DNA of 64,000 nucleotides from Bacteroidia bacterium. GTDB lineage: Bacteria > Bacteroidota > Bacteroidia > UKL13-3. The notes below the pieces were generated by a model. That model had not been told where the DNA came from. It worked only from the letters and a program-made list of their open reading frames with translations, and ran no database searches. The stretch covers positions 1,239 to 65,238 of the forward strand of contig JAGVLJ010000017.1 of NCBI GenBank assembly GCA_020049855.1, in the 5' to 3' direction. Every line of letters begins with the position of its first letter. The stretch's first letter is position 1. A program made the position numbers and the translations under genes. Positions 5,939 through 62,152 of the stretch are shown one piece after another.

Positions 5939-6094
5939 CTCTATGGTTATTAAAGGTCGGCCTCAAATTCAACTGGAGCGTACATATTGCGCGTTATCAT
6001 TTGTTTCATAAAAGTATTAGCGTGCTGCCACTTGCTACAACTGACGATATATTTCCAGTTTGGCGGCTAAGTATATTTTGAAATCTGCATTCAC

Positions 6095-7543: not shown

Positions 7544-8713
7544 CTAATCTTTGTTTAACGACACTTGTTTATATTTATCTTTATTTAGAACGGTCAATTC
7601 TAATACAGAATTTTGATTAAGGAGAGAAATCATTAAATTACAAAAATCATTTTTATTGATGTTTTCTGTAGCTGTATTGTTTATTTTAACTATTCTTTGT
7701 CCAACTCTAATTCCTTTCTTATATGCAATGCTGTTTTTCCAAACGAATGCAACCAAAATCTCATTCTGGTCATTAAGTTCCAAATTCAATCCAAATCTAA
7801 TTAAATCTTTTTCACCCTTAAAATCGTAAAGTGTTAAAAAAATAATGCTATCGGAAAAGTTAAATATCACATTATAATTTCTGAATAATGCAGATCCCAA
7901 TAATGGTTTGTCTTGAGAGCAGTAGGTTGGAATGCTTGTGATGAACTTATTCCCTAGCAATAATGTATCAACTAAAATTAGTGTTTGGTTGCCATTAATA
8001 ATTCCATTTACAGTCATAAACTTTTTTCCTATCCCATATGTTTTACTAACTTTTTTAAACTTTAACGACTGTTTTATTTTCTTTTCATTAATCACTAAAA
8101 AACCATTAAATCCCGTGTCAATTAACACATAAAAATCAATGCCTCCATATGCCACTCTTGCTAAAGGTAAATTGCCGTAATACTGTAACGGAACCTTTAT
8201 TGACATCCCTTCTTCTTTAAAGGGCTCTCTTGACCAATAGAGTGTGCCTGATTGTGAATTCATATTCCAATTTAAAAGATTAATAATATTAGCACCGATT
8301 ATACCATCAATCTTCACACATGTTTGCTTATTAAACTGATAAAGGTCAAGCTGAGTGCATTTTACTTCTCCAAATGCAGTATGACCAATTGTAAAATTTT
8401 CCAGAAAAATATTCGCGCTGTCAGGAATGCCATTAATACTTATTTTACCTATTTTGCCTGAAGTAGGTGTTATCTCATTAGAAATGACAGTTAATCCTGA
8501 TCCTGTATCAAACAAAAAATTATAGGCTATATTGTTAACGTAAACTTGTATTATCGGCAAATCGTTGTTATACTCAATTTGTGTTGAATCTGTTGTATTG
8601 AGACTTAAAATGGATGACTGAATAGTTTGTGCAAATAGAAGTCTACTTGACAATAATAGTAGAAAAAACGGAATGGGATATTTTGCCCTTACATAGCACA
8701 TAGTAACTATCAA
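7544..8713 (-). CDS. Secreted retropepsin-like aspartyl protease with two D-T/S-G lobes and a C-terminal PDZ domain
   Basis: Signal peptide, two catalytic-type motifs (FDTGSGLTVIS and LIDTGFNGFLVI), and a C-terminal PDZ-like segment (GIRVGQRIVKINNT...). Confidence 0.7.
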   Translation of the reverse strand: MIVTMCYVRAKYPIPFFLLLLSSRLLFAQTIQSSILSLNTTDSTQIEYNNDLPIIQVYVNNIAYNFLFDTGSGLTVISNEITPTSGKIGKISINGIPDSANIFLENFTIGHTAFGEVKCTQLDLYQFNKQTCVKIDGIIGANIINLLNWNMNSQSGTLYWSREPFKEEGMSIKVPLQYYGNLPLARVAYGGIDFYVLIDTGFNGFLVINEKKIKQSLKFKKVSKTYGIGKKFMTVNGIINGNQTLILVDTLLLGNKFITSIPTYCSQDKPLLGSALFRNYNVIFNFSDSIIFLTLYDFKGEKDLIRFGLNLELNDQNEILVAFVWKNSIAYKKGIRVGQRIVKINNTATENINKNDFCNLMISLLNQNSVLELTVLNKDKYKQVSLNKD

Positions 8714-9797
8714 TAAAGAATCTGAATTTACTGTAACTGTTATATTTTATCTAACTCGTTGTGCAAAGTTTGTTGAACTGTTGTCGTTTTAGGTCGAGCC
8801 TTTTTTGCTTGAGTTACCTTTGACGTGATGTTCAATTTTCGTTGCTCAAAAGAAAGAAATAATAAGTGAAAAAGCAAATCGGAATGATTCTGAATTACCG
8901 GCATTGCTCCATTGGATACAGGAATAACGAAATGCAATAAAAAATGTCTTGTTGATATTGTTACTTAGTTAGTCTTGCTATGCCCCTAATGTTCCTGCTG
9001 TGGCGGAATTAGATCCACTAACTTGTTGTGAGAGCGCATTCGTTTAGTAAAGCAACCGCTGTATGCGAGACCCGTACGTACAGTAGTGTGAGAGATGCAC
9101 CCTATTTATAAAACTCGGTAGAGCTGTCTTCTCGATTAGGGAATTTCCGTATAAACGTGGTCAAAATGGAATGGTGAAACGCTGAACCATTAGGGAAAAT
9201 GAGTAAAATAGAGCATGAAACAAAATCAGAGATTTTGGCACATGCGGTTTTCACCTCTGCCAGATGTGGCATGGTGCAAGTGGAGGGTCTGCATACCAAA
9301 AGGCTCTATGCAGCCACGTCAGGGTAGTACTCCCGCCTGCTAGGCAGCGAAAGCTAAATTTTCCCCGACTTGCGGATTGGTATCCAACATATGGCTGTTA
9401 AGTTTTTCTTATCGGGTCATCGTGTACCTGATTCTAAAAAATCTGTGAAACTTACGTATAAAGAAAGTTGGTAGAATAAAGCGGTAAAACATACGGAAGT
9501 ATTTCACATTTTCTACCTCGCTGGCATCAATCGGATGAGTTAGAAATTCCTAATTGATAGAGGAGCGTTTTTTGAAAGCATACCGCATGTCAGGAAATCA
9601 GGTTGGCCTATCTGTATTTCTAATGGATCCCTTCAGCGGAAAACTTTTTTAAGTAGTTTTTTCATATGTCTTAGTTACGTGACATTCGTGTTAGTACGTC
9701 CGCAGACTTACCCCTATTAGCCCTGTAGCGTGGGCTAATAGGGTACTCAGTATTGTTGTACCAAAGAATAAATGATTTTAAGTACTTCCTCCACAGC

Positions 9798-10145: not shown

Positions 10146-10184
10146 GGCTCAAAAATAAGCGGTTGTTGAATAAATTCACATAGG

Positions 10185-10940
10185 TTGTATACTTGCATTA
10201 TGAATAAGTACAGGTTGTTTCTGAGAAAAAGTTTCAGTTACTTTTTGATAGCAGTATTGATTATTGCGGGCTGTGCATTTTTCGTCCCCGAAAAAATTCC
10301 ATTAGTTTATAAAGTGCGGGCAGCAAGTATTAAAACCGCTCATCCGGGTTTAGTGATTATGTTGCACGGGTTGGGAAGCAATGAGGACGATATGTTTGGT
10401 TTAGCCACGCATTTACCAAAGGAGATGATAGTTGTTTCGGCTCGCGCACCTATTACATTGGCTAAAGATTCCTATGCTTGGTATAAGGTTGACCGAAGTA
10501 ATGGAAAGTTTATTTATGATGCATCCGAAGCCGAACGAGCCCGGGTGTTGATATCGCAATTTATTGATGCGGTAAGTAAAAAATTTAGGATAGATGCTAA
10601 ACGAATTTTTTTGTTAGGGTTTAGTCAGGGGGCAATTATGAGTTACAGCGTTGCTTTGTCCCAACCTGAAAAGGTAAAAGGGATAATGGCGTTAAGTGGT
10701 CGTTTAATGGCTGAGTCAAGAGTGAAAACCGGAAACCCAGATAAGCTTAAACAGCTTCAGGCGTTTATTGCACATGGCACTGATGATGAAATATTACCTG
10801 TAACTGATAGCAGAGAAGCTGCAGCTTTTTGCACAAGTGAAGGGGTGCAGGTGCTAATGAAAGAATACCCAATTAAACATCAAATTAGTGAGCAGGAATT
10901 GGCAGATTTGCTCCGTTGGCTAAATGCACAAAACATGTAA
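10185..10940 (+). CDS. Alpha/beta-hydrolase (phospholipase/carboxylesterase family)
   Basis: HGLGSNEDD motif and nucleophile elbow GFSQGA; the start may be the internal Met at 10200. Confidence 0.75.
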   Translation: MYTCIMNKYRLFLRKSFSYFLIAVLIIAGCAFFVPEKIPLVYKVRAASIKTAHPGLVIMLHGLGSNEDDMFGLATHLPKEMIVVSARAPITLAKDSYAWYKVDRSNGKFIYDASEAERARVLISQFIDAVSKKFRIDAKRIFLLGFSQGAIMSYSVALSQPEKVKGIMALSGRLMAESRVKTGNPDKLKQLQAFIAHGTDDEILPVTDSREAAAFCTSEGVQVLMKEYPIKHQISEQELADLLRWLNAQNM

Positions 10941-13303: not shown

Positions 13304-14167
13304 TTAATGAATTTCAATATTATATGCTGCTTCAAATATATCATTGCTTTTTAATGATTGGATACCTTCTTTTTCTTCCAGTTTCCCATTATGTTGCACG
13401 TAGTCTGCAAGGCCATACCATGGTTCAATACAAATGAAACGGGCCTCCGGTTTTTTCCAAATGCCCAAATATGGAAATCCTTCAAACGAAACCGAAATTT
13501 TATGTGGATGCCTGAAAGATGAAAGAGTGACAGATGACGACCGAATGTTTTTAAGTACAATAGCATCTTTGGCAAATAGCACCTCACTAAGGGGTAAAAA
13601 TTTTCCAGTAATAACAGGCTCTTCTCTTAAATCAAAAAGTCCGTTAGTAAGCAGGTGTCTGTTTAAATATTCATCTTGGTTAAACATAATCGAGTAATCA
13701 GTTAAAGTTTCATTTTCAAATAACGGGCAGGTAAACCCCGGATGTGCACCAATGGAAAAGTACATGGTTTCATCACCCGTATTAATTACTTTATAGGTAC
13801 AGGAAAGGGTAGCTTTGATTAGGGTATATCCCAATTCAAGATGAAATGGGAATGGAAAATGTTGCAAGGTGTTTTGCGAAGCACTTAATTTCAGTGCTAC
13901 GGATTCAGTGCTTTGAAACATTACTGAAAATTGTTCATCTCTTGCAAAACCATGCTGACTACATAGATAGGATTTGTCCTGCCATTTAAATGAATTGTTT
14001 TTTAATTTTCCGACAAACGGAAAAAGCACCGGTGCATGTCGGTTCCAGCTGAAAGCATCTGCCTGCCACAAAAGTTCCTTCTGAATATCCTTGCGAAATA
14101 TACTGGTCAGTTCTGCGCCTTTTTCGCTGATGGTTATTTTTAAAAAATCATTCTCAAGTTTAGTCAT
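13304..14167 (-). CDS. Aldose 1-epimerase (galactose mutarotase-like) family protein
   Basis: 287 aa, YihR-like mutarotase fold signatures (HAPVLFPFVGKL..., HPGF); 4-nt overlap with the downstream EamA gene. Confidence 0.65.
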   Translation of the reverse strand: MTKLENDFLKITISEKGAELTSIFRKDIQKELLWQADAFSWNRHAPVLFPFVGKLKNNSFKWQDKSYLCSQHGFARDEQFSVMFQSTESVALKLSASQNTLQHFPFPFHLELGYTLIKATLSCTYKVINTGDETMYFSIGAHPGFTCPLFENETLTDYSIMFNQDEYLNRHLLTNGLFDLREEPVITGKFLPLSEVLFAKDAIVLKNIRSSSVTLSSFRHPHKISVSFEGFPYLGIWKKPEARFICIEPWYGLADYVQHNGKLEEKEGIQSLKSNDIFEAAYNIEIH

Positions 14168-15030
14168 GCAGTCTTTTTTTGTGTATTATATGAAAGAAAC
14201 AGATTCAACACCACTCCGACAATTATCAAGGTCATTCCAAATAAACTCCAATGATTAAATGTTTCATCAAATAGGAAATAGCCTGTTGCCAAAGCATAAA
14301 TTGTTCCCAGATACGTAAGGATGGAAACATCAGAAACACGCTCCAACTGATAAGATTTGGTCATAAAATATTGTCCGAATTGAGTGAATACTCCGGTTGC
14401 AACTAGTAATCCCCAATCGGTAACGGTGGGAGTGGTCCAGTGGGTAAGGGTATAGGGTGTCACAAAGGGAAGAGTAACAAGAGGGAAATAAAATACAATA
14501 ACTAGGGCGTGATCCGATTGATTTACTTTACGAATGCAACTATACGCCAACCCCGACATCAGGGCAGAGAACATACCAAGCATAAGCAACTCATTACTAA
14601 TGCGTGGGTCAAAACCCTTTACAAGTACTACCCCGGAAAATGATAAAATGGTGAATAGCCAGTTACGAAATGTTAGTCGGTCGTCTAAAAGAAAGTAAGC
14701 GAAAATAAGTGTAAAAACCGGAGAGAGGTATTGGATGGTTACTGCACTGGCCAATGGAATTTTTTGTACAGTGATGATGTAGCATAACAATCCTGCAAAA
14801 CCGGCCAGGCCTCGCAGAATAAGCCATTTTTTATCATTACCCCATGGGTTAAGTTTTTGTTTGCGGATAAAATAGAGGGTAATAAAAAAGGTAATTATAG
14901 AACGAATAAATACAACCTGATGAGCAGGAATATGATTTAGGTATTTAATGCAAAGATTCATGCCGGCATAGTAAACGGTTGCCTGCAGCATATACCTTAT
15001 TCCGGGTCGTAATTCCATTATGCGTTGCAA
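14164..15030 (-). CDS. EamA/DMT-family transporter (10 TM)
   Basis: 288 aa with repeated hydrophobic helices arranged in two EamA-like halves. Confidence 0.8.
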   Translation of the reverse strand: MQRIMELRPGIRYMLQATVYYAGMNLCIKYLNHIPAHQVVFIRSIITFFITLYFIRKQKLNPWGNDKKWLILRGLAGFAGLLCYIITVQKIPLASAVTIQYLSPVFTLIFAYFLLDDRLTFRNWLFTILSFSGVVLVKGFDPRISNELLMLGMFSALMSGLAYSCIRKVNQSDHALVIVFYFPLVTLPFVTPYTLTHWTTPTVTDWGLLVATGVFTQFGQYFMTKSYQLERVSDVSILTYLGTIYALATGYFLFDETFNHWSLFGMTLIIVGVVLNLFLSYNTQKKTA

Positions 15031-52244: not shown

Positions 52245-52284
52245 ATAAAAAAGAGCCGGTCAGAAATGATCCGGTTCTTTTTTT
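52245..52284 (+). terminator. Intrinsic terminator after ahcY
   Basis: aaaaaaGAGCCGGtcagaaatgatCCGGTTCttttttt. Confidence 0.6.
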
Positions 52285-52375
52285 GTATGGCATAAGGGTA
52301 ATTACTATTTCAGTTGTCTATATAAATATAATAGAAGAAATAAGTTGTACAATATATTTTTGCACCTGTTATCGG

Positions 52376-52951
52376 ATGCAAGCCACAGAAAGCCAAAATA
52401 TTTTTAACATACGCGAAGGTGATATCCGCTTGTTTGAACAGGTATTTCAGATGTATTGTAAGGAATTAGTGCGTTATGCAAATACAATATTAAAAAATGC
52501 AGATGAGGCTGAAGATATTGTTCAGCAGCTATTTGTTAATCTATGGCAAAAAAGGGAAAGCCTTCAGGTAAATACTTCCATGCGCAGCTATTTGTACCGG
52601 GCGGTACACAACTGTTGTTTAAATCGCATTAAACAATTATCGGTTAAGCAGACTTATACTACTTATATGGGTTATGCGGGAGAGCAGCATTCTGCACCAG
52701 CCTCGGCCGCCATTCAGCAAAAAGAAGTGGAAAAAGCGATAGGGGTGGCCATAGAGAAATTACCGGAACAATGCCGAAAAATTTTCAAATTAAGCCGGCA
52801 ACATGGAATGAGGTACCAGCAGATTGCAGATGAGTTGAACCTTTCAGTAAAAACGGTAGAGAATCAAATGGGAAAGGCATTAAAACATATGCGTGAGCAG
52901 TTAAAAGACTATTTACCCGGAGTAATCTTGTTTTTTTTATACCACAACTAA
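52376..52951 (+). CDS. ECF RNA-polymerase sigma factor (FecI-like)
   Basis: Sigma-70 region 2 (…FEQVFQMYCKELVRYA…) and region 4 HTH (…YQQIADELNLSVKTVENQM…); start taken at the internal Met MQATESQ rather than the ORF-track start at 52283. Confidence 0.85.
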   Translation: MQATESQNIFNIREGDIRLFEQVFQMYCKELVRYANTILKNADEAEDIVQQLFVNLWQKRESLQVNTSMRSYLYRAVHNCCLNRIKQLSVKQTYTTYMGYAGEQHSAPASAAIQQKEVEKAIGVAIEKLPEQCRKIFKLSRQHGMRYQQIADELNLSVKTVENQMGKALKHMREQLKDYLPGVILFFLYHN

Positions 52952-52953
52952 AA

Positions 52954-53946
52954 GTGACAGAGGATAAAACATATATTGATGAGTTAATTGCCAAATACCT
53001 GACTGGGGAAGCACTCCCAGACGAAGCCATTGAGCTGGAAGACTGGCGAAGTGCAAATGCAATTAACCACGATTATGTAAGCAAGGTAGAACAGGCTTAC
53101 CGAATCACCCATATGCTTCCCAAAGCAAAAGAAGTTGACCCCTATGAATTATTTGAGAAAGTGAAGACACAAATTACAGTGCCGCCTAAACAAAATGCCC
53201 TTGTGACTCACTTGAGAGATTATGCTACTTTGTGGCGAGTGTTGGCAGCAGTGTTTGTTCTTGGCCTTGGGGTAATTTTTGCCCTATATTTTATACTGGA
53301 TGCCAAAAAGGGGTTGAGTGTGTACGAATCGGGTAACGGGGTACTGAAACAAAAACTTGCAGACGGAACACAGCTGGAATTAATGGCTAATACCAAACTG
53401 GAATTAGTAGATAGCAAAAAGCGAAGGTTTCGTTTAAGCGGAGAGGCAACCTTTTATGTGGTTCACAATGCGTCTGATCCGTTTGTAATTGAGGCGGGCG
53501 GCATTCAAATTAAAGATATAGGCACCCTGTTTACCGTGAAGGCAATTGAAGGAAACGATTCAGTACACGTAAAAGTAGCTGAAGGTATAGTGCAGGTTTA
53601 TTCAGCATCCGATACTATAGAGTTACACCAGCACCAGATTGGGGTATTTATTCGCTCCACTCAGCGGTTAATTAATTTTTCGAAACGAAAGACTAATGAA
53701 AAAAAAATAGAGCGTGTATTTCATTTTAGCAACAGCGCACTTAAAGAGGCTGTGGAAATTATAAATGCAGCATACCCTGAAAAAATCACTTTAGCGGACA
53801 GGAGGCTGGAAAAATGCCTGATTACAGTTGATTTTAACGGGCAACCTATTGAAGAAATAATATCCATACTTGCAGAAACGTTAGGGCTGTCTTACGATAA
53901 AATACCCTCCGGATATCGCCTCAAAGGAACTGCATGTTTACCATGA
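52954..53946 (+). CDS. FecR-family anti-sigma factor / sensor (N-terminal anti-sigma domain, TM, FecR domain)
   Basis: 330 aa with a central TM (VLAAVFVLGLGVIFALYFIL) and a FecR-like periplasmic beta domain; starts 3 nt after the sigma gene stop. Confidence 0.8.
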   Translation: MTEDKTYIDELIAKYLTGEALPDEAIELEDWRSANAINHDYVSKVEQAYRITHMLPKAKEVDPYELFEKVKTQITVPPKQNALVTHLRDYATLWRVLAAVFVLGLGVIFALYFILDAKKGLSVYESGNGVLKQKLADGTQLELMANTKLELVDSKKRRFRLSGEATFYVVHNASDPFVIEAGGIQIKDIGTLFTVKAIEGNDSVHVKVAEGIVQVYSASDTIELHQHQIGVFIRSTQRLINFSKRKTNEKKIERVFHFSNSALKEAVEIINAAYPEKITLADRRLEKCLITVDFNGQPIEEIISILAETLGLSYDKIPSGYRLKGTACLP

Positions 53947-55784
53947 AATATTTTTTAATTTATTTTATGTCGGTTATTCTTTCTGTATCGCTCTGTTTTG
54001 CTTCAAATGTTCCTGCTTTAGAGCGCGAAGTAACTGTACGGGTGCAAAATGAACAGGTAAAAGAAGTACTTACATTGATGGCACAGCAGGCAGGCATTCA
54101 GTTTTCATACAATCCGGCTAAAATAACAGTAACAAATAGAGTATCGCTGTCTCTGCTAAAAAAACCGGTAAGGCTGGTGTTGAATATGCTGTTCAAAAAT
54201 ACGGTTCAGTATAAACAAAAGGGGAATTACATCATACTAATAGCCGCACCTTTACCTGAGGCAAATGTATTGGTAAAAAAAATTACCGTAAGTGGATACA
54301 TACACGATATAAGAGGGTATAAACTGATTGGAGCAAGTGTGCTCGATAAAAAAAATCAACTATCGGCAGTAACTAATGTGTATGGATTTTTCAGTTTGCA
54401 AATTCCTTACAATACTTTACCCATTGAAATGAGGGTGTTAAAGGAAAATTATCTCGACACTTCCGTTATTATTCAAACTTTAGAGAATACGATTGATATT
54501 ATTTTGCGAACGAAACCGGAGAAAATAATGCCCGTCATCCGGCAGGAAGCAGAGGTGAAAAAGATGAAAGAAAAACCGATGACGGCTGATAGTTTGACTT
54601 TGGAGCAAACCGATATTTCTCCAAACGTCAGCGTTAAGAAAAATTTTCTGGAGCAATTAGTGTCGCCACGCATAAAGGCCAGCCTGCACAATATTTCGGA
54701 TACCTTATTTACCCGTGTGCAATTTACATTTGTCCCTTACCTGAGCACTAACCAACTGCTATCGGGTAATACGATAAATGATTTTTCCTTTAATTTACTT
54801 GGAGGATATTCACAAGGAATTAATAAAGCCGAGTTTGGAGCCGTAATAAATATTGATCGTGGAGATGTTAAATATTTTCAGGCAGCAGGGTTAATGAATC
54901 TGGTAGGTGGTAATGTAAAAGGAGGACAGTTTGCAGGATTGCTTAATGTCAACAGGCAAACATTGTCAGGTGTGCACGTTGCTGGATTAATGAATATGAA
55001 CTTTGGAAAAGTTAAAGGGGTGCAGGTTGCGGGATTGATCAATATAGCCGACACAATAAGAGGTGTTCAGGTTGGCGGATTGGGGAATGTGTGTCGTTAT
55101 TTCAAGGGCGTTCAGCTATCGGGTTTGATTAATACCTGCGTAAAAGTTGATGGAGTGCAGGCGACATCGCTGGTAAATACTGCCGTGTCGGTAAATGGGT
55201 GGCAATGCGCTTCGTTAGTTAATGTGGCTGGCTATGTAAAGGGCCGACAGGTATCTTTTATCAATATAGCTGATTCCATTAATGGCACACCCCTCGGGTT
55301 TTTTAGTTATGTGGCTCAAGGATACCACAAATTAGAGTTATCGGGGGATGAGGTACTCTACAGTCAGTTTGCATTTCGTACCGGGGTTTTAAAGTTTCAT
55401 AATGTTTTATCGCTTGGGGTAAATCCTTATTTTTATGGAGCAACCTTTATAGGTGTAGGATATGGGTTTGGAAGTTATACTTCGCTTACTAAAAAATGGA
55501 ATTTTGGAGGAGATGTTTTTTCCCAATCTATTGTAAAAAATGCGAACTTTAGAAATGCACCTCTACTCACTTCGTTTTTTATCGGTTTTGAACGTAAAGT
55601 AACTCAACAATTTTCTATCACATTTGGTCCGGCTTTGAGGGCTTTACTCAGTTATTCGATTGCCAACGAGTATCTTGTAATAAGAGAACAACTTGCCCCT
55701 TATACTTTTGTCAACCATAGTTTCAACAATGGAACAAATTTGCAGATTTGGGTTGGTGGAAAAGTAGCTTTCCGCTTTTTATAA
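53934..55784 (+). CDS. Secreted STN-domain and CarboxypepD_reg-like protein with an array of 15-residue repeats and a beta-rich C-terminal domain (no TonB-dependent barrel)
   Basis: Signal peptide; STN-type segment (…VLTLMAQQAGIQFSYNP…); transthyretin-like segment (ITVSGYIHDIRGYKLIGASVLD…); then about 10 repeats of the form AGL[MLI]N-x9-G-x-Q-x. Confidence 0.6.
   Translation: MFTMKYFLIYFMSVILSVSLCFASNVPALEREVTVRVQNEQVKEVLTLMAQQAGIQFSYNPAKITVTNRVSLSLLKKPVRLVLNMLFKNTVQYKQKGNYIILIAAPLPEANVLVKKITVSGYIHDIRGYKLIGASVLDKKNQLSAVTNVYGFFSLQIPYNTLPIEMRVLKENYLDTSVIIQTLENTIDIILRTKPEKIMPVIRQEAEVKKMKEKPMTADSLTLEQTDISPNVSVKKNFLEQLVSPRIKASLHNISDTLFTRVQFTFVPYLSTNQLLSGNTINDFSFNLLGGYSQGINKAEFGAVINIDRGDVKYFQAAGLMNLVGGNVKGGQFAGLLNVNRQTLSGVHVAGLMNMNFGKVKGVQVAGLINIADTIRGVQVGGLGNVCRYFKGVQLSGLINTCVKVDGVQATSLVNTAVSVNGWQCASLVNVAGYVKGRQVSFINIADSINGTPLGFFSYVAQGYHKLELSGDEVLYSQFAFRTGVLKFHNVLSLGVNPYFYGATFIGVGYGFGSYTSLTKKWNFGGDVFSQSIVKNANFRNAPLLTSFFIGFERKVTQQFSITFGPALRALLSYSIANEYLVIREQLAPYTFVNHSFNNGTNLQIWVGGKVAFRFL
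54770..55340 (+). repeat. Degenerate 45-bp (15-codon) tandem repeat array inside CDS 53934-55784
   Basis: Protein-level periodicity …AGLMNLVGGNVKGGQF / AGLLNVNRQTLSGVHV / AGLMNMNFGKVKGVQV / AGLINIADTIRGVQV / GGLGNVCRYFKGVQL / SGLINTCVKVDGVQA…. Confidence 0.7.
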
Positions 55785-55838
55785 TTTTTTTGAGGGGGAT
55801 AGGGGTAGTTTTTCTCAAGCTTGTCGTAGGTGTAAATA

Positions 55839-56867
55839 TTGAGCAACATGAAAGTAATTATACCCGTTCATCTGGCCGCTGCAGCAGTTTTTATGCTTCT
55901 TTTTTTTTCTTCTTTTGCGCAGAATGCAACTACGTACAAAGGCACTATTTATACGTTTATAGTTAATAAAGTACCTGATCATTTTCCGGCTCCATTGGTT
56001 GGGTTTGTAAATATGGCACAAGGAAGCCAGACTGGAGCACAGATTGGATTTTTAAATCAGAATCAAAAAAACATTAATGGAACTCAGATTGGATTTGTAA
56101 ACAATGTCGGTGGTTATTTCAACGGATCACAAATCGGATTTGTAAATCTCAGCCGGAAATATGTAAGCGGTGTGCAAACGGGTTTTGTAAATCTGTGCAA
56201 CGATAGCTTCACAGGAGCACAGATTGGCTTTGTTAACGTGGTAAAAGATTCTATGGTTGGCACCCAAATTGGATTTGTTAATGCAGCGACTAAAGGGTTA
56301 AAGGGTATTCAGTTCGGTTTTGTGAATATCTCGAAAAATGGTATTGCGGGGTCGCAGATTGGATTTGTAAACATTGCCGATTCAATGCGACAGGGCATTC
56401 CGTTGGGATTTGTTTCCATAGTGCGAAAAGGAGGTTTCAGTGCGTTTGAAATCGGCACGTCCACTTTATTTCTTTCCACTCTATCCTATAAAATTGGTAT
56501 TCCTACACTATATACTTCGGTTATACTCTCGTTCAATCCGTCATATACTAATCAGTTTGCCTATGGTATCGGATTAGGGTCTATGATCAGGTTGAACAAA
56601 ACATTTGGATTTAACCCCGAGGCAACCATTCAAAATTCTATGGAGCAGCACACGCAAATGTTTTCCACTCTCGCTTCGTGTTTCAGCATCCGTATAACTC
56701 CAAAGACTTTGTTGGTGGCAGGGCCATCCGTTAGCTGGATACATAAAGATTCCCGTTCTGGCGAAACTTTATACAAACCGACCTATTCACTTTATCATTA
56801 TAGCTATAACTACCGCAACGATTTAACCGTAGGAACTCAGGTATCCCTTCGGTTTAAACTCAATTAA
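55839..56867 (+). CDS. Secreted paralogous repeat protein (15-residue [IT]GF[VL]N-x9-G-x-Q repeats plus a beta-rich C-terminal domain)
   Basis: Signal peptide MKVIIPVHLAAAAVFMLLFFSSFAQ; 8-9 tandem repeats (QIGFVNNVGGYFNGS / QIGFVNLSRKYVSGV / QTGFVNLCNDSFTGA / …); C-terminal about 170 aa of alternating hydrophobic pattern. Confidence 0.6.
   Translation: MSNMKVIIPVHLAAAAVFMLLFFSSFAQNATTYKGTIYTFIVNKVPDHFPAPLVGFVNMAQGSQTGAQIGFLNQNQKNINGTQIGFVNNVGGYFNGSQIGFVNLSRKYVSGVQTGFVNLCNDSFTGAQIGFVNVVKDSMVGTQIGFVNAATKGLKGIQFGFVNISKNGIAGSQIGFVNIADSMRQGIPLGFVSIVRKGGFSAFEIGTSTLFLSTLSYKIGIPTLYTSVILSFNPSYTNQFAYGIGLGSMIRLNKTFGFNPEATIQNSMEQHTQMFSTLASCFSIRITPKTLLVAGPSVSWIHKDSRSGETLYKPTYSLYHYSYNYRNDLTVGTQVSLRFKLN
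55990..56425 (+). repeat. Degenerate 45-bp tandem repeat array (recurring cagattggatttgtaaac core) inside CDS 55839-56867
   Basis: DNA-level recurrences of CAGATTGGATTTGTAAAC-like 18-mers at about 45-bp spacing. Confidence 0.7.
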
Positions 56868-56938
56868 TCAGTTTATTTCCATTCGCTGAAACTTTTTTTC
56901 ATCATTCAATTAAAACTAAATTCCATGATCCGTATAGT

Positions 56939-59293
56939 ATGAAAAAACAATTTATTCTTCTTGTGTTAGGCGTTAGTGTATTGACATGTGCATCGGCTCA
57001 ACAGTTTACCCAAACCGTTCGCGGCAGTGTCATTGATAAAATTTCTCAAAGACCTATTCCCGGAGCCATTGTTACAATTGAAAATTCAAATCCGCTTAAT
57101 GGAACAACTACTGATATAAATGGGAAATTCGCGTTGAGGAATGTTTCCGTTGGACGACAAAGTATTAAAGTTACTTACATTGGGTACAAAGATTATATTC
57201 TTCCCAACATTGTAGTAAACTCGGGGAAAGAGGTTGTGCTAACCATTCAGCTTGAAGAATCAATTGTGGTTAAACGCGAAGTAGTAGTAAGGGCAACCCA
57301 ACAAAAAAATAAACCTATTAACGAGCTTGCTTTAGTAAGTGCTCGGACTTTTTCAATCGAGGAAACGCAAAAATTTGCAGCTGCGGTAAATGATCCAGCA
57401 CGTATGGCAACTTCGTTTGCCGGGGTGGTTCAGGTGGAGGATGGGAACAATGGAATTTCTATTAGGGGGAATTCGCCCAATGGAATGATATGGCGTCTGG
57501 AAGGTGTAGATATACCCAACCCGAATCATTTTTCCAATGTGGGCACTTCCGGAGGAGGTATTTCTATCCTTAGCGTTCAGTTGCTAAGCAACTCTGACTT
57601 TATTACGGGAGCGTTTTCCTCCGATTATGGGAATGCTCTTTCTGGTGTATTTGATTTAAAACTTCGAAAAGGAAACAACGAAAAGCGGGAGTTTACTTTA
57701 CAGGCAGGATTTCTTGGCTTGGATTTCGCTGCCGAAGGGCCGTTAAAAAAAGATTATGAAGGTTCTTACCTCATTAATTACCGCTACTCTACACTTTCAA
57801 TTTTAAATAAACTTGGAATTAATGTCGGAGAGGGAGTTACCAATTTTCAAGACTTATCGTTTAATCTTTTTTTCCCCAGTAAACAGTACGGCTCATTTGG
57901 TTTTTTTGGTTTTGGCGGATTGAGTAATCAAAACTCAGAGGCAGTAAAAGATTCAACTGTGTGGCTTGATGAAATTTATAAACAATATACCTCGGTATAT
58001 GTTGCCAATACAGGAGCCGCAGTTCTTAATCATACCCTGCAAATTCGCAAAAGGTCTTTTATTAAAACTTCTTTGGTAGCATCTGGGAATCTTAATAAAG
58101 ATGTTGCCGATAAGTTAAATAAGAATTATGAACTAAGGCGTAATACTTATTCAGAAGCAGGGCAAAGTAAAGTTGCACTAAACTCTATTTTTTCGACTAA
58201 AATAAATGCACACAGCAGTTTTAAACTAGGGTTAATTTATAGTTTGCTTCACTACGACCTAATCAAGAAGAAAACATTGATTGATTCAGTTAATACACTT
58301 AAAACATGGATTAATACAAACGGGCGTACTGCTACTTTACAGTTTTTTGGAAATTGGAGCTACAAAATTTATCAGCGGTGGACCACCAATGTAGGGTTGC
58401 ATTACCTTCAGCTAATGCTAAACAACTCTCAGTCGCTTGAGCCACGCGTATCAGTAAAATACGATGCAAGTTCCAAGAGTGCTTTTGCAGCGGGTTATGG
58501 TTTACAAAGTCAAATTCAACCTCTCGGAGCCTACTTCACAACAGACGCTCTCACCAATCAACCTATAAACAAAAACCTTCTTTTGAGTAAAGCTCATCAT
58601 CTCGTTTTGTCTTATGATTACAGCATCTCTGTGCATACTCATATTAAAACCGAGGGGTATTATCAGGACTTGTTTCACATACCCATAAGTCGTGATAGCG
58701 GCAGTACAATGTCACTGCTTAATGTAAGGGATGGATTTACAACAGAAAAATTGACTTCTGATGGTAAGGGGAGAAATTACGGTGTGGAAATTACCGTAGA
58801 AAGATTCCTGCACAAATATTTTTATTACCTTCTTTCAATTTCACTATTTGATTCAAAATACCGAGCTGCTGATGGGAATTGGTACAATACCCGTTTCAAC
58901 ACTAATTTTGCAAGTAGTTTTACCGGGGGGAAAGAGTGGAAACTTTCCGAGAAACATAAAAATAAAGTGATTGGCCTAAATATAAAGGTTATTTATACTG
59001 GTGGTACCCGAACTACCCCAGTTGATTTGCCTGGATCAATTGCCTCGGGTAATGAGGTAAATCAAACATGGAACGCATTTACAAAGCAAAATCCTTCCTA
59101 TTTTAGGTTGGATACGAAAATAAGTATTAAGCGCAATTTTGCACACTCAACAAGTTCATTGGCACTGGACATTCAAAATACCACCAATCACAAAAATGTA
59201 GGAGGGCAATATTTTGACGTTAATAGTGGGAAAATTAAATTCTGGTATCAGTCTCCTTTAATTCCGGTGCTTAGTTATCGGCTTGAGTTTTAA
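56939..59293 (+). CDS. TonB-dependent receptor (CarboxypepD_reg-like N-terminus, plug, 22-strand barrel), with no STN domain
   Basis: Signal peptide then CarboxypepD_reg-like segment (VRGSVIDKISQRPIPGAIVTIENSN…NGKFAL); plug; long barrel ending …LSYRLEF (C-terminal Phe). Confidence 0.8.
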   Translation: MKKQFILLVLGVSVLTCASAQQFTQTVRGSVIDKISQRPIPGAIVTIENSNPLNGTTTDINGKFALRNVSVGRQSIKVTYIGYKDYILPNIVVNSGKEVVLTIQLEESIVVKREVVVRATQQKNKPINELALVSARTFSIEETQKFAAAVNDPARMATSFAGVVQVEDGNNGISIRGNSPNGMIWRLEGVDIPNPNHFSNVGTSGGGISILSVQLLSNSDFITGAFSSDYGNALSGVFDLKLRKGNNEKREFTLQAGFLGLDFAAEGPLKKDYEGSYLINYRYSTLSILNKLGINVGEGVTNFQDLSFNLFFPSKQYGSFGFFGFGGLSNQNSEAVKDSTVWLDEIYKQYTSVYVANTGAAVLNHTLQIRKRSFIKTSLVASGNLNKDVADKLNKNYELRRNTYSEAGQSKVALNSIFSTKINAHSSFKLGLIYSLLHYDLIKKKTLIDSVNTLKTWINTNGRTATLQFFGNWSYKIYQRWTTNVGLHYLQLMLNNSQSLEPRVSVKYDASSKSAFAAGYGLQSQIQPLGAYFTTDALTNQPINKNLLLSKAHHLVLSYDYSISVHTHIKTEGYYQDLFHIPISRDSGSTMSLLNVRDGFTTEKLTSDGKGRNYGVEITVERFLHKYFYYLLSISLFDSKYRAADGNWYNTRFNTNFASSFTGGKEWKLSEKHKNKVIGLNIKVIYTGGTRTTPVDLPGSIASGNEVNQTWNAFTKQNPSYFRLDTKISIKRNFAHSTSSLALDIQNTTNHKNVGGQYFDVNSGKIKFWYQSPLIPVLSYRLEF

Positions 59294-59566: not shown

Positions 59567-60804
59567 GCCTGCACACTTGCCAATTTGTACAGCTTATCAC
59601 TTTTGCGAACGGGGGTATCTAATTTAAATGCACATTTGTCACCCTTGCTCACTTCTTCCACCGGGCCTTGGTCGGTGTGCAGTTCATTCACAGTTGTTTC
59701 AATAACACCTGTTGTAGGGCCGGTGATTAAAATACTGTCGCCTGTTTTAAGTGTATGCGATTCAACAATAAATTCGGCCACACCTATTTTACTAAAATAG
59801 TTATTGCCTTTCCCTATGTAAATTTTTTTCAGTTTCGCTTTCGAACCTGAGGTATCGGTCCATTCTCCTAATTTCTGGCCTAGGTAATAACCGCTCCAAA
59901 AACCCCGGTTGTATACTTCCTCCATACGCTCTTTCCATTTTTGTGCTTTTTCAACTGTATAATTACCTTCCATATATGCGTCAACAGCTTCGCGGTAACA
60001 TTGCGTAACAGTTTTAACATATTCGGGTCCTTTGCCCCGGCCTTCAATTTTTAAAACCGACACACCTGCATCCATCACTTCGTTTAAAAAATCGATGGTG
60101 CATAAATCTTTGGCCGACATAATATACTCATTGTCTATTTCCATTTCGTGGCCTTCTTCATTATCAATAACGGTGTATGTTCTTCGGCAGTTTTGCGTGC
60201 AGGCTCCGCGGTTGGCCGATGAATTTTGCATGTGTAAACTCAGGTAGCACTTGCCCGATACCGCCATACATAGGGCACCATGTACAAAAATTTCAATTTC
60301 AATCAATCGGCCCGAAGGGCCTTTTATCTGTTCCTGTTTTATCGTGTCGGTTATTTTTTTTACCTGTGTTAAGCTTAGTTCGCGGGCAAGCACAATAGTA
60401 TCGGCAAACAGTGAGTAGAATTTTACCGTTTCAATATTAGTTACATTAAGCTGGGTTGAAATATGCACCTCCATACCCACACTTCGCGCATAGGAAATTA
60501 CCGACTGGTCAGAGGCAATTACAGCCGTAATACCCGCTTCTTTGGCACCATTCACTAGGGTTTTAACCAATGTAAGGTCGTGGTCGTAAATGATGGTGTT
60601 TAGGGTAAGGTACGAACGAATTCCGTGCGATGCGCAGGTGCTTGCCACTTCTTTCAGGTCATCGGCTGTAAAATTCATAGTGGCACGGGCACGCATGTTC
60701 AGTTGCTCCACGCCAAAATACACGGAGTCGGCCCCTCCTTGAATGGCTGCCATCAGCGAGTCGAACCCACCTGAGGGAGCCATTATTTCTACTTTGCGAT
60801 TCAT
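59563..60804 (-). CDS. U32-family peptidase-like protein (RlhA/TrhP/UbiU-type Fe-S enzyme family)
   Basis: U32 signature E-x-F-x-H-G-A-x-C-x4-G-x-C (EIFVHGALCMAVSGKCYLS); start taken at the internal Met MNRKVEIMAPSGG. Confidence 0.85.
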   Translation of the reverse strand: MNRKVEIMAPSGGFDSLMAAIQGGADSVYFGVEQLNMRARATMNFTADDLKEVASTCASHGIRSYLTLNTIIYDHDLTLVKTLVNGAKEAGITAVIASDQSVISYARSVGMEVHISTQLNVTNIETVKFYSLFADTIVLARELSLTQVKKITDTIKQEQIKGPSGRLIEIEIFVHGALCMAVSGKCYLSLHMQNSSANRGACTQNCRRTYTVIDNEEGHEMEIDNEYIMSAKDLCTIDFLNEVMDAGVSVLKIEGRGKGPEYVKTVTQCYREAVDAYMEGNYTVEKAQKWKERMEEVYNRGFWSGYYLGQKLGEWTDTSGSKAKLKKIYIGKGNNYFSKIGVAEFIVESHTLKTGDSILITGPTTGVIETTVNELHTDQGPVEEVSKGDKCAFKLDTPVRKSDKLYKLASVQA

Positions 60805-60849
60805 TGCGGCAAAGGTACATTTTTCAGTTGATTGTTGTAATTTCGGGCA

Positions 60850-61581
60850 GTGATAAATTCCAATGCACATATGCCAATACAGGCTGACGGGGTTCCGGTG
60901 CTGATACGGCAGCCGCTAATGTGCTGTTTTTCTCCGGCTGCTTGCAGCAAATGGGCCGTGGTTCAAATTACCCAACCGCAGCAGTGCATCGTTGCTGAGG
61001 CCATTTACCTTATTAACAAAACATCACTGCCCGGAGATTTCGCTCCGTTGGCCGACAAATATCAATTGGCCGCATGGGTAGATGCCACCTTGCCGCTGGC
61101 TGAATTAATTCAATACATGCTTGTATGGAAAATGCAGCTTCCTTCGTTGTGGCTGCTGGCCGCTTTGCCACCTGGTAGTGAACCGTTGCAGCCATTTTTA
61201 TATCTGGGTTTTGATGGTTTTATTCTTGACTCGGCAGCAGATGAGCGCTTGTCTTCATTGGCAGGTATGCTCAGGCCGACTACACAGGTGCTTAGCTCCG
61301 AGGTAAAAGAAAAACTCGAAACCCTGCGACTGCAGGTAGATGATACCGACCATCAACTTATTGCTTTATTGGCTCAGCGCACCCGCCTTATTAAGCAATT
61401 GGCTGAGTTAAAAAAGCAGGCACAGCTGGATATTTTACAGCCGGCCCGATGGTCGCGCGTGTTAAAGGATGCCGTACTTACCGCAAAGGCAAATGAGGTG
61501 AGTTTATCCGTGCTGCTCTCGGTCCTGGATGCCATTCATTTGGATGCGGTGGAGCAGCAGTTAAAGCATTATGAGAAGTAG
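60850..61581 (+). CDS. Two-domain protein: N-terminal domain of unknown function (GC-rich, about 140 aa) fused to a C-terminal AroQ-class chorismate mutase domain
   Basis: C-terminal 100 aa (…LRLQVDDTDHQLIALLAQRTRLIKQLAELKK…PARWSRVLKDAVLTAKANEV…) resembles the CM_2 three-helix fold with conserved Arg/Lys/Glu. Alternative starts exist at 60871 or at the Met preceding LRPTTQV. Confidence 0.55.
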   Translation: MINSNAHMPIQADGVPVLIRQPLMCCFSPAACSKWAVVQITQPQQCIVAEAIYLINKTSLPGDFAPLADKYQLAAWVDATLPLAELIQYMLVWKMQLPSLWLLAALPPGSEPLQPFLYLGFDGFILDSAADERLSSLAGMLRPTTQVLSSEVKEKLETLRLQVDDTDHQLIALLAQRTRLIKQLAELKKQAQLDILQPARWSRVLKDAVLTAKANEVSLSVLLSVLDAIHLDAVEQQLKHYEK

Positions 61582-61585
61582 TTGG

Positions 61586-62152
61586 TCAATCTTCAATCAC
61601 AATGCCGTAGTGTTGCAGTAATCCGCTAAGGCCTTGTGTGGAGAACCGGGCTTTTTTAATTTTGTTTTTATCGGGGTAAATGGAGTAGTTAAATGCTGTA
61701 CGCAAATCGGCTTTTTCCAGCGTGGTTTGATCAAATGTGGCCAACTGTAAATCGCAGTTGTTAAAAACAGCCTGTGTAAAATCGGCAGCGGTAAAATCGG
61801 CTTCGTGCAGTTGACAATTGGTAAACAGGGTTCCTTTCAGTTTCAGGTTGTAAAAAGATACCATGCTCATCAGGCAATTTTCAAATTGAAGTGAAAGTAA
61901 AAATGGATTACACTGTGCAAAGGATAAACCCAGCAGCTTACAGTTTAAAAAATGGTTGCTTTGAAAAGCGGTATGGTTAAGCTTAGCCAAACTGAGGTTG
62001 CTGTGATGCCAGGTGCAATCAATAAATTTTATACCTGATAAATCAGCCTGGCTTAGTTCGCAGTGTTCAAAGCGGCATTTTTCATACTCACCCGCCAGTG
62101 CGGGAGTGCCTGTAATGGTTTGCTCAAAGGTATATTTGCTCATATTTTGCAA
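61586..62152 (-). CDS. Pentapeptide-repeat protein
   Basis: 188 aa of tandem A(D/N)LxX-type pentapeptide repeats (…ADLSGIKFIDCTWHHSNLSLAKLNHTAFQSNHFLNCKLLGLSFAQCN…). Confidence 0.8.
   Translation of the reverse strand: MQNMSKYTFEQTITGTPALAGEYEKCRFEHCELSQADLSGIKFIDCTWHHSNLSLAKLNHTAFQSNHFLNCKLLGLSFAQCNPFLLSLQFENCLMSMVSFYNLKLKGTLFTNCQLHEADFTAADFTQAVFNNCDLQLATFDQTTLEKADLRTAFNYSIYPDKNKIKKARFSTQGLSGLLQHYGIVIED

Follow-up and report, generated by a model that had tools for sequence, protein, structure and literature searches.

We analysed a 64,000-nucleotide stretch of DNA (the window), in which two genes encoding proteins with short tandem repeats, P1 and P2, follow genes for a sigma factor and an anti-sigma factor on the same strand and precede a gene resembling TonB-dependent receptors. 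The features relevant to this study are as follows.

52283..52951, + strand: sigma gene, ECF-type sigma-70 factor (Pfam Sigma70_r2, r4_2 and ECF)
52954..53946, + strand: fecR, FecR-type transmembrane anti-sigma factor of 330 aa (Pfam FecR 48 bits, FecR_C 28.7 bits)
53934..55784, + strand: P1, ORF of 616 aa, with signal peptide, STN, NTE, disordered tether, repeats of predicted solenoid fold and predicted small outer-membrane barrel
54027..54245, + strand: P1 STN signalling domain, aa 32-104 (Pfam, Foldseek and profile)
54279..54518, + strand: P1 SusC-type NTE (CarboxypepD_reg-like) domain, aa 116-195 (Foldseek and profile)
54528..54641, + strand: P1 disordered tether, aa 199-236 (pLDDT <50)
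54795..55289, + strand: P1 repeat block, aa 288-452, ~10-11 rungs of 14-16 aa, [AS]-G-L-x-N-x7-G-x-Q-x
55290..55784, + strand: P1 C-terminal domain, predicted small beta-barrel, aa 453-616, ending ...VAFRFL (Foldseek and P2 homology)
55839..56867, + strand: P2, 342 aa, with signal peptide, 10 rungs of 15 aa and predicted small outer-membrane barrel; LA_2272 repeat family
55995..56444, + strand: P2 repeat block, aa 53-202, with the clearest 45-bp DNA periodicity
56939..59293, + strand: TonB-dependent-receptor-like gene, 784 aa, with NTE, TonB-box-like REVVVRA, weak Plug match and no STN

The sigma ORF scores 178 bits against NCBIfam TIGR02985 (Sig70_bacteroi1; cut-off 126), and its true start is probably the ATG at 52376 rather than the TTG at 52283 that opens the ORF, since homologs are 192-199 aa long. 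The end of the fecR ORF overlaps the start of the P1 ORF by 13 nt. On a 99%-identical contig, the gene caller placed the starts of P1 and P2 three codons later, at 53943 and 55848. We retrieved 594 P1 homologs, some of which NCBI names [quoted passage not shown], so that the P1 family comprises at least 594 clusters at 90% identity.

When P2 (aa 53-202) was compared with itself at a lag of 15 residues, 62 identities were found, against 12.2 ± 3.3 (maximum 24) in shuffled sequences. The block consists of 10 units, each of exactly 15 aa, with the pattern Q-I-G-F-V-N-x7-G-x. For P1, lag 15 gave 43 identities and lag 16 gave 25, against 13.2 ± 3.3 in shuffled sequences, and its ~10-11 units (aa 288-452) are spaced by 16 residues four times, 15 residues four times and 14 residues once. 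The strict 15-residue period that an initial annotation had ascribed to both proteins therefore holds for P2 but not for P1, where spacing varies from 14 to 16, and the P1 examples that it gave are in fact 16-mers. Among homologs, spacings are mostly 16 in the P1 family (263/361) and mostly 15 in the P2 family (330/377). In the rung consensus of the module common to P1 and P2, one Asn and two Gly are invariant, and a Gln is present as well.

This period can also be read in the DNA, as had been claimed, in a degenerate form that stands out clearly in P2 and less so in P1. Identity within the P2 repeat DNA (55995-56444) is 0.52, 0.54 and 0.52 at lags of 45, 90 and 135, and 0.26 at other in-frame lags, while the P1 repeat DNA (54795-55289) gives 0.39 at lag 45 and 0.37 at lag 48. 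A repeat-finding search returned families with 45-bp spacing built on CAGATTGGATTTGT cores. Expansion by duplication of units, also part of the initial annotation, is supported by whole-unit indels between homologs: a 69%-identical P2 homolog shows clean gaps of 15 and 30 aa, and the whole-unit indels between close homologs include single-unit (odd-number) ones. The potential for repeat-number variation that had been attached to this claim is weak at the DNA level, where instability of the repeats is unlikely. That the 45-bp repeats might be a contingency locus, in which slippage varies repeat number between cells or strains, is hardly credible: whole-unit copy-number differences do exist between species and two P2 units have an exact 19-nt stretch in common, but P2 units are on average only 51% identical in DNA (maximum 62%), Tandem Repeats Finder reported no period-45 array, the 99%-identical contig shows no whole-unit difference (both proteins are merely 3 aa shorter), and where two residues are identical, their codons agree in only 49% of pairs.

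P1 and P2 had been described as tandem paralogs, and homology searches bear this out. BLASTP aligned them with E = 5e-19 and 26% identity over 300 aa, and comparison of the P1-family and P2-family profiles by hhalign (probability 100%, E = 5.5e-52) yielded an alignment of 312 columns that spans the repeats as well as the C-terminal domain. Judged by these alignments, one module makes up P2 and recurs as the C-terminal half of P1; no further copy of it was found among the other ORFs of the window. The family, at first considered unassignable, can be assigned as NCBIfam NF047436 ("LA_2272 repeat"), which P2 matches in 5 stretches with 101.7 bits (cut-off 25; E = 1.3e-29). NF047436 is matched by 50/50 P2-family members and by 34/52 P1-family members (best P1-family E value 4.3e-13); the P1 of the window gave no match at E <= 0.1. 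P1 is homologous to P2 but divergent, with a period of mostly 16. Two neighboring NCBIfam models, NF047435 (LA_2272/LA_2273 lipoprotein) and NF047437 (VC2662 family, an equivalog), scored 45.7 bits (cut-off 30) and 48.4 bits (below the cut-off of 140), respectively, against P2, the former matching at profile positions 37-59, i.e., the repeat part, alone. P2 does not appear to be a lipoprotein like the Leptospira founders, since its signal peptide (...FFSSFAQN) contains no cysteine and no lipobox. With the relatives covered by these three models P1 has the repeat in common, whereas STN, NTE and tether are its own additions.

For the LA_2272 repeat we found no Pfam family, solved structure or functional literature; the literature on members consists of list entries for LA_2272 and of the uncharacterised VC2662, for which no phenotype is given. 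Since NF047436 has neither a known function nor a Pfam entry, the repeats do not map to a named Pfam repeat family of known function. The pentapeptide repeat (PF00805) had no Pfam match in P1 or P2; a profile search of the PDB returned a designed pentapeptide protein at E = 0.4, and a few homologs showed weak pentapeptide matches. NCBI labels the repeat as "surface", which would conflict with the periplasmic solenoid proposed below, and we found no evidence behind this label.

AF2 models of both proteins are all-beta and confident, with a pLDDT of 91.5 and a pTM of 0.71 for P2, a mean pLDDT of 85.4 for P1, and pLDDT values of 95-98 in the repeat blocks (89-98 in the P1 repeats). In the DSSP strings each unit has two sites where strands break, G-[LF] and positions 9-11, yet in different rungs strands run on through either of them: E-runs cross positions 9-11 in P1 and G-F in P2. 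Because a hairpin turn would not be readable as a continuous strand, stacked beta-arcs are favored over hairpins. The repeats fit a parallel two-arc beta-solenoid with one coil per rung, a geometry that we infer from the DSSP strings and the indel patterns. Short-period parallel beta-rolls and solenoids carry fixed Gly and Asn at their bends, and the YadA head repeat (14-residue) and pentapeptide-repeat proteins resemble the predicted rungs of P1 and P2 in having one coil per 14-16 residues. The solenoid stack with fixed Gly and Asn positions that had been suggested from the repeat pattern is therefore supported by AF2 pLDDT, DSSP runs and whole-unit indels alike.

The same is true of the small outer-membrane barrel expected after each repeat block, since every significant Foldseek match in the PDB was a small outer-membrane barrel (e.g., NspA, OmpA and OprF-N). 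P2 matched NspA (E = 5.2e-4), Opa60 (TMt 0.72), OprF-N (TMt 0.57) and OmpA, with TMt ranging from 0.45 to 0.72, as well as the designed 8-strand TMB 6x9z (TMt 0.68, rmsd 3.8), and the C-terminal domain of P1 matched OmpA transmembrane domains, OprF-N, Opa60 and PagP. Such a domain does follow both blocks, but instead of the roughly 170 aa first given for both it measures 164 aa in P1 and, in P2, about 140-155 aa. On these models, the two C-terminal domains fit small outer-membrane barrels of 8 to 10 strands. A few P2-family members also matched models of outer-membrane barrels, TDE1717 (2) and AcfA (1). P1 ends in ...VAFRFL and P2 in ...LRFKLN, and the C-terminal family consensuses are ...LRFL and ...LRYxF, so a check for a C-terminal beta-signal finds an aromatic residue near the end that is not always terminal. 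No autotransporter, TAA or Por_Secre_tail matches were found in Pfam or NCBIfam.

Could the repeats and the C-terminal domain instead form one large antiparallel beta-barrel, i.e., a porin or a degenerate transporter barrel? DSSP strands of 12-14 residues with gaps of 2-3, and the ~22 strand elements that follow the tether in P1, would be compatible with such a fold. However, Foldseek gave no good match to barrels of 14-22 strands (TMq <=0.27), the highest-ranking matches, mostly 8-strand barrels, extend over no more than the C-terminal 140-180 residues, single units are gained or lost between close homologs, and E-runs cross both candidate turn sites, all of which makes a large barrel very improbable.

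The initial annotation mentioned neither the STN and NTE domains of P1 nor the sigma/FecR/TonB-receptor operon. The head domains of P1 and the operon carry most of the functional information. In Pfam, the STN domain of P1 scores 27.8 bits, marginally below the gathering score of 28.4, and PF07660 (STN) is precomputed on most P1 homologs. The model of this domain matches the PupA signalling domain (2a02, TMt 0.70) and also the N0 domains of PilQ and EscC, and the P1 profile has weak matches to PilQ and PupA. For the NTE, the best Foldseek match is the SusC-dex NTE, 9hfj (TMt 0.88, rmsd 1.3 Å, 25% identity), a chain that the P1 profile also matches at E = 3.7e-6. Pfam CarbopepD_reg_2 (24.7 bits) stays below its gathering score in this region, and P1 matches positions 1-45 of TIGR04056 with a score of 19.7 against a 368-bit cut-off. 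Pfam detected no Plug or TonB_dep_Rec in P1, and Foldseek matches to TBDT barrels had TMq <=0.15. P1 is not simply a truncated SusC, because in P1 the STN precedes the NTE, whereas in SusC transducers the NTE precedes the STN (PMC7782687).

Within the tether, which otherwise cannot be aligned, the motif MTADSLTLE (aa 216-224; 54579-54605) is conserved and TonB-box-like. It can be written D-[ST]-[VLI]-x-h, with D present in 48/51 homologs, [ST] at +1 in 48/51 and a [VLI]-type residue at +2 in 71%. We treat as leads only its resemblance to the TonB box of BtuB, DTLVVTA, and, in the same sense, to that of BT1763, DEVVVTG. The latter is described in PMC7782687.

Genes for an ECF sigma factor and FecR lie directly upstream of P1, on the same strand, in 75/75 related loci from Bacteroidia, Cytophagales, Chitinophaga and Fluviicola (31-77% identity). 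The three genes form an ECF-sigma/FecR/P1 cassette with P1 as its obligatory third member. A TonB-receptor-like gene is found 3' of P1 in 43/71 loci, within 1.6 kb in 39 of them; about 40% of loci lack it, but none lacks sigma or FecR. In the window, its product matches Pfam CarboxypepD_reg with 62 bits and Plug with 18.2 bits, the latter below the gathering score, and its N-terminal domain matches PDB 6ytc and 9hfj. P2 is linked to the cassette in some lineages only, and P2-type proteins are also found alone, away from any sigma/FecR pair, so the LA_2272-type module is not intrinsically a signalling device.

Textbook cell-surface signalling consists of an ECF sigma factor, a FecR-type anti-sigma factor and a TonB-dependent transporter doubling as sensor, and the STN domains of such transducers bind the anti-sigma factor, as reported in PMC7782687 and PMC11637429. 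From the repeats, the homology, the domain content, the confident fold predictions and the synteny, we lean towards the view that P1 is an outer-membrane-anchored, non-transporter partner of FecR-type cell-surface signalling, with a solenoid-barrel module that it shares with P2. P1 would have no transport channel because it has neither a plug nor a 22-strand barrel. In its predicted topology, the barrel would anchor P1 in the outer membrane and the solenoid would most likely project ~5 nm into the periplasm, since it lies N-terminal to a barrel too small for export and is continuous with the periplasmic STN and NTE. The presumed signal would arise from a change either at the outer membrane or in the TonB-dependent receptor encoded alongside; passed on to FecR through a putative STN-FecR contact, it would free the sigma factor to act on a presumed regulon. 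P2 is a headless paralog, probably acting as a structural or partner subunit.

The position of the solenoid is what separates this proposal from one in which P1 and P2 are surface-exposed repeat proteins (adhesins or coat components), with the solenoid outside as in autotransporters and the sigma/FecR pair only regulating their expression. That the C-terminal domains match mainly 8-strand barrels, too narrow for a passenger, and that STN and NTE domains, which are periplasmic in every characterised protein (PMC7782687), run on into the P1 solenoid both argue against export, as does the lack of autotransporter-type matches noted above. What favors it is the NCBIfam family name, "surface repeat-containing protein", for which we found no experimental support, together with the listing of Leptospira LA_2272 among predicted surface or outer-membrane proteins, the detection of VC2662 in the V. 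cholerae biofilm-matrix proteome and the DUF2807 gene that separates P1 from the TonB-receptor-like gene in one relative. Overall, we consider surface exposure quite unlikely.

A further explanation makes P1 a structural envelope protein, such as an outer-membrane-to-cell-wall spacer or an accessory of the TonB receptor, whose STN does not signal to FecR; the cassette would then be conserved only through control of its genes by the sigma factor. Secretins, too, contain STN domains, which are non-signalling there, and it is PilQ and EscC N0 that the P1 model matches alongside PupA; headless P2-type proteins without a sigma/FecR pair, and the frequent presence of a TonB-receptor-like neighbor, would fit as well. 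Yet invariable adjacency in all 75 loci, fixed order and overlapping frames are the pattern of cell-surface signalling trios, unlike ordinary regulon members, and it is the receptor-like gene, never sigma or FecR, that is missing from about 40% of loci. A purely structural role is therefore unlikely.

Returning to P1 as a signalling partner of FecR, a bolder version is doubtful but worth stating. P1 could represent a class of TonB-coupled outer-membrane signal transducers without a transport channel, in which the tether motif would be a working TonB box, TonB would pull on the solenoid and small barrel, and movement of the STN would switch FecR and sigma; transport would fall to the downstream STN-less receptor (a "split" transducer) or be absent.

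Taken together, these findings describe a widespread Bacteroidota family that appears to have kept the sigma factor, FecR and the STN head while the transporter is replaced by a predicted solenoid and small barrel. They also provide initial clues to the structure and genomic context of the LA_2272/VC2662 repeat module, which comprises ~8,000 clusters at 50% identity and is named, with no fold or function on record. The P1 cassette is like FecA/FecR/FecI, PupA/PupB and the Bacteroides SusC-like transducers in that an ECF sigma factor, a FecR-type anti-sigma factor and an STN outer-membrane protein are co-encoded. P1 further resembles TonB-dependent transducers in its SusC-type NTE and in a TonB-box-like motif just after the periplasmic domains (PMC7782687), but differs from them in having no plug and no 22-strand barrel, its membrane part being the predicted solenoid and small barrel, and in that a separate STN-less receptor-like protein is encoded downstream. 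In the VreA/VreI/VreR (PUMA3) system of Pseudomonas aeruginosa, the "receptor" VreA likewise has an STN and no transporter barrel (PMC2729926). However, VreA is mostly soluble and periplasmic, has a TolA/TonB-like C-terminal domain and is encoded in a different gene order (PMC2729926), whereas the predicted barrel of P1 would itself serve as an outer-membrane anchor, and P1 additionally contains an NTE and a predicted solenoid. In the Dma proteins of Bacteroidota, an ECF sigma factor is controlled via an 8-strand outer-membrane barrel on a long disordered periplasmic tether, anti-sigma domain and barrel being one polypeptide without STN, FecR or solenoid (PMC10927553); in the P1 system, the anti-sigma factor FecR and the barrel belong to two different proteins, and contact between them would have to be made by the STN. 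If this STN-FecR contact is true, the P1 family would join VreA in Pseudomonas and Dma in Bacteroides as a system able to report the state of the outer membrane or periplasm with no ligand import.

The span from 54770 to 56425 takes in the repeat block and C-terminal domain of P1, the first of two adjacent repeat proteins, and the N-terminus and repeat block of the second, P2. In the window, both genes belong to the following five-gene order.

52283 or 52376 to 52951, + strand, ECF sigma factor ORF with two candidate starts
52954 to 53946, + strand, FecR-type anti-sigma factor, with a 13-nt overlap with P1
53934 to 55784, + strand, P1, 616 aa
55839 to 56867, + strand, P2, 342 aa
56939 to 59293, + strand, TonB-dependent-receptor-like protein, 784 aa, last of the order

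The ATG at 52376 (MQATESQ...) is the likelier sigma factor start, judging by homologs of 192 to 199 aa; the TTG at 52283 gives an odd hydrophobic 31-residue extension. In a metagenomic contig 99% identical to the window, P1 and P2 are both called 3 codons shorter. The 784-aa receptor-like protein exhibits a SusC-type N-terminal extension (NTE), the TonB-box-like stretch REVVVRA, and weak similarity to Plug, and Pfam/NCBIfam and domain analysis detected no STN signaling domain in it. A scan for sigma-70-type promoters and terminators stayed at background and was uninformative for a Bacteroidota operon.

The part of P1 that precedes the repeats, missed in the initial annotation, has the following features.

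Ahead of the STN domain, + strand, signal peptide in the N-terminal part of P1
aa 32 to 104, + strand, STN domain, 27.8 bits in Pfam for a gathering score of 28.4
aa 116 to 195, + strand, CarboxypepD_reg-like domain (NTE), best structural match 9hfj
aa 199 to 236, + strand, disordered tether, pLDDT < 50

Most P1 homologs carry PF07660, and the modeled STN of P1 resembles the signaling domain of PupA (TMt 0.70) and secretin N0 domains. In 9hfj, the NTE is matched to that of a SusC transporter (25% identity, TMt 0.88, rmsd 1.3 Å), a chain also matched by the P1 family profile (E = 3.7e-6), and NCBI names some P1 homologs [quoted passage not shown] Immediately before the STN, there is a P-A-L-E-R motif (P1 aa 27-31; window 53934-54030) that is almost invariant across the family: in a 12-sequence alignment, P27, L29, E30, and R31 are invariant, and A28 is conserved in at least 90%. 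The tether is alignable at one short motif only (D in 48/51, [ST] in 48/51, a [VLI]-type residue in 71%, x, then a hydrophobic residue), the window copy being MTADSLTLE (aa 216-224; 54579-54605). We take this D-[ST]-[VLI]-x-h motif to resemble classical TonB boxes. It directly follows the NTE, which is the place of the TonB box in SusC (DEVVVTG in BT1763; PMC7782687), making it a candidate TonB box, a lead rather than a result. It is a better candidate than N-I-x-D-T-L-F-T-x-V-Q-F-S (P1 aa 253-268), which we rejected because it is modeled as a structured strand where the solenoid begins (E258-267, pLDDT ~76-80), and which is also disfavored by the conserved segment that the headless P2 has just before its first rung.

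How constant is the context of P1? We compared 79 genomic loci (species representatives) and 4 loci from metagenomic/genome contigs, encoding P1 relatives with 31 to 77% identity, in Bacteroidia MAGs, Cyclobacteriaceae, other Cytophagales, Chitinophaga, Fluviicola, Ohtaekwangia, Chryseolinea, and Algoriphagus. At all 75 loci with enough upstream DNA, one of which has P1 broken into two ORFs, the sigma factor and FecR genes lie immediately upstream of P1 on the same strand. In this sample, P1 is tied to the sigma/anti-sigma pair without exception. A receptor-like gene is found downstream of P1 at 43 of 71 loci (≤1.6 kb away in 39 of these), and a P2-type gene at only 8 of 71. P1 may instead be purely structural, with an STN domain that does not signal, a less likely reading that fits poorly with the 75/75 adjacency to sigma/FecR when the receptor gene is dispensable.

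Individual loci show several peculiarities. In Algoriphagus vanfongensis DSM 17529 (7932-9614 and 13696-14889), the P1 homolog is broken into two ORFs, by a frameshift or a sequencing error, and a second solenoid-barrel gene lies immediately 5' of the TonB-receptor-like gene. In a Fluviicola taffensis contig, a DUF2807-family gene (10177-10902) takes the place of P2 between P1 and the TonB-receptor-like gene. In an otherwise similar cassette (locus L088, 4177-5916), a ParE-toxin gene, a small ORF, and an AAA/DUF4143 gene lie between the P1-like and P2-like genes. A contig titled uncultured Bifidobacteriaceae bacterium (CAZHTC010000002.1) encodes a Bacteroidota-type sigma-FecR-P1-P2-receptor operon with 76% protein identity to the window, so that its MAG label looks wrong.

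The initial annotation regarded P1 and P2 as tandem paralogs, and this is borne out. Their BLASTP alignment (E = 5e-19, 26% identity) is 300 residues long and takes in the C-terminal domain as well as the repeats, and a profile–profile comparison of the two families gives a probability of 100% (E = 5.5e-52, 312 columns). Thus, P2 as a whole and P1 in its C-terminal half share one two-part module, which was found in no other ORF of the window. Some 5 kb downstream (61586-62152, − strand), a 188-aa ORF resembles pentapeptide repeat proteins, an unrelated solenoid family, and its counterpart in the 99%-identical contig is a 185-aa gene with Pfam Pentapeptide matches; GC content over 60001-62000 is 0.456, versus ~0.39 in the surrounding sequence. 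No Pfam model matches the repeat or C-terminal domain of P1 or P2, and no solved structure related to the module emerged when PDB sequences were searched with profiles. P2 matches NCBIfam NF047436, "LA_2272 family surface repeat-containing protein" (101.7 bits for a cut-off of 25), and the related NF047435, while its match to NF047437 (VC2662 family) is below cut-off. NF047436 is matched by 50/50 aligned P2 homologs and 34/52 P1 homologs; the window's own P1 does not match it. The repeat can therefore be placed, by profile matching, in a named family, and our literature search (LA_2272, VC2662, NCBI product names, STN/FecR in Bacteroidetes) turned up no functional work on either family. LA_2272 appeared in Leptospira outer-membrane prediction lists only, and VC2662, whose deletion gave no phenotype, as an "uncharacterized hypothetical protein" enriched in the matrix proteome of an ompU mutant. 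The module is abundant, with 8,032 clusters at 50% identity with E ≤ 1e-3 in an exhaustive profile search, 1,311 of them with E ≤ 1e-30. P2-type genes are found beside a sigma-FecR-P1-like trio in Echinicola marina and one metagenome contig, and they stand alone in Treponema and three other genomes/MAGs. Their occurrence away from sigma/FecR argues that the solenoid-barrel module is a general outer-membrane building block, and P1 reads as a Bacteroidota fusion of this block to a signaling head. In two genomes (genes at 3514-5943 and 3609-6038), a stand-alone P2-type gene follows, on the same strand, genes for an amino-oxidase-type FAD oxidoreductase and SQS_PSY (squalene/phytoene synthase), probably carotenoid genes, a recurring neighborhood unlike the sigma/FecR context.

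We modeled both proteins using AlphaFold2 with family alignments. Mean pLDDT was 91.5 for P2 (pTM 0.71) and 85.4 for P1, reaching 95 to 98 in the repeat blocks, and both models are all-beta beyond their N-terminal parts. For the C-terminal domains, every notable Foldseek match in the PDB is a small outer-membrane barrel, including, for P2, NspA (E = 5.2e-4), OmpA transmembrane domains, OprF-N (TMt 0.57), Opa60 (TMt 0.72), and a designed 8-strand barrel (TMt 0.68, rmsd 3.8 Å). STN and NTE are periplasmic in characterized proteins (PMC7782687). Barrels this small are unable to export a passenger that lies N-terminal to them, and the solenoid runs on from periplasmic domains, which makes the periplasm its most likely location. 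Display on the cell surface, suggested by the word "surface" in the NCBI family label, is disfavored by the size of the barrel and by the periplasmic head of P1.

The repeats themselves fit a parallel, two-arc solenoid in which each unit makes one coil, a probable geometry read from DSSP strings and indels. In outer rungs, DSSP interrupts each unit twice, once at the invariant G-[LF] and once at positions 9 to 11 of the unit, leaving strands of ~6-7 and 4 residues; in central rungs, the strand crosses G-F in P2 and positions 9 to 11 in P1. A continuous strand is incompatible with a hairpin reversal and compatible with stacked beta-arcs keeping ladder hydrogen bonds, and since a strand runs through either site in homologous proteins, the two-arc arrangement fits. 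Independent support comes from indels, because whole-unit changes are tolerated by a solenoid and would flip an antiparallel meander: a P2 homolog at 69% identity differs by clean gaps whose lengths are exactly 15 and 30 residues, and P1 homologs gain or lose single units. The combination of solenoid rungs and a small outer-membrane barrel anticipated from the sequence thus has the backing of confident predictions. That repeats and C-terminal domain form one large barrel is contradicted by these single-unit indels and by the fold search, where TMq was ≤ 0.27 for P2, so that only the last third of the query was matched and a large barrel did not fit; P1 behaved in the same way.

The period differs between the two proteins. 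P2 aa 53-202 consists of ten units of exactly 15 residues (Q-I-G-F-V-N-x7-G-x), with 62 identities at lag 15 versus 12.2 ± 3.3 in 1000 shuffles. P1 aa 288-452 has ~10-11 units ([AS]-G-L-x-N-x7-G-x-Q) of mixed spacing (four of 16, four of 15, one of 14), with 43 identities at lag 15 and 25 at lag 16 versus 13.2 ± 3.3 in shuffles. Among homologs, 330/377 spacings are 15-periodic in the P2 family, and the P1 family is mostly 16-periodic (263/361). The strict 15-residue period initially ascribed to both proteins hence holds for P2 but not for P1. The 45-bp DNA repeat is visible as described, with identities in P2 of 0.52 to 0.54 at lags 45, 90, and 135 versus 0.26 at other in-frame lags, weaker values in P1 (0.39 at lag 45, 0.37 at lag 48), and repeat families spaced 45 bp around CAGATTGGATTTGT in the window DNA. 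Tandem Repeats Finder detected no 45-bp array in 54000-57500 because the units are too diverged. Since P2 units have a mean identity of 51% (maximum 62%) and share the codon in only 49% of identical-residue pairs, the DNA periodicity mostly reflects conserved codons and not an array of recent origin. A slippage-prone contingency locus is contradicted by this divergence and by the 99%-identical contig, where neither protein has gained or lost a whole unit, and at the DNA level the initially proposed potential for repeat-number variation is weak.

Going beyond the observed repeats, module homology, domain make-up, confidently predicted folds, and unvarying synteny, we infer functional roles for P1 and P2. 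The barrel would anchor P1 in the outer membrane, with a solenoid most likely in the periplasm that, at the usual beta-solenoid rise of 4.8 Å per rung, would span roughly 5 nm with its ~11 rungs. The tethered STN would contact the periplasmic domain of FecR, as in cell-surface signaling (PMC7782687, PMC11637429), and when the outer membrane or the neighboring receptor changes, FecR would become more or less stable and the sigma factor would be released. For P2, the role would be that of a headless partner or a structural paralog. Overall, we lean modestly toward P1 being an outer-membrane-anchored partner of a FecR-type signaling system; its fold is more secure than this reading, and its topology and the nature of the signal are less so. 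The boldest reading still standing, in which P1 is a TonB-coupled signal transducer without a transport channel, or a "split" transducer, seems unlikely.

As an outer-membrane-anchored partner of FecR, P1, with its architecture and obligatory context, would represent a variant of cell-surface signaling of which we found no description in the literature. SusC transducers are reported always to have the NTE ahead of the STN (PMC7782687), whereas in P1 the STN precedes the NTE (aa 32-195; window 54027-54518). There are precedents for parts of this scheme: VreA, in a Pseudomonas signaling system, is an STN protein without a barrel (PMC2729926), and the Dma proteins of Bacteroides use a disordered tether to connect an anti-sigma domain with an outer-membrane barrel of eight strands (PMC10927553).
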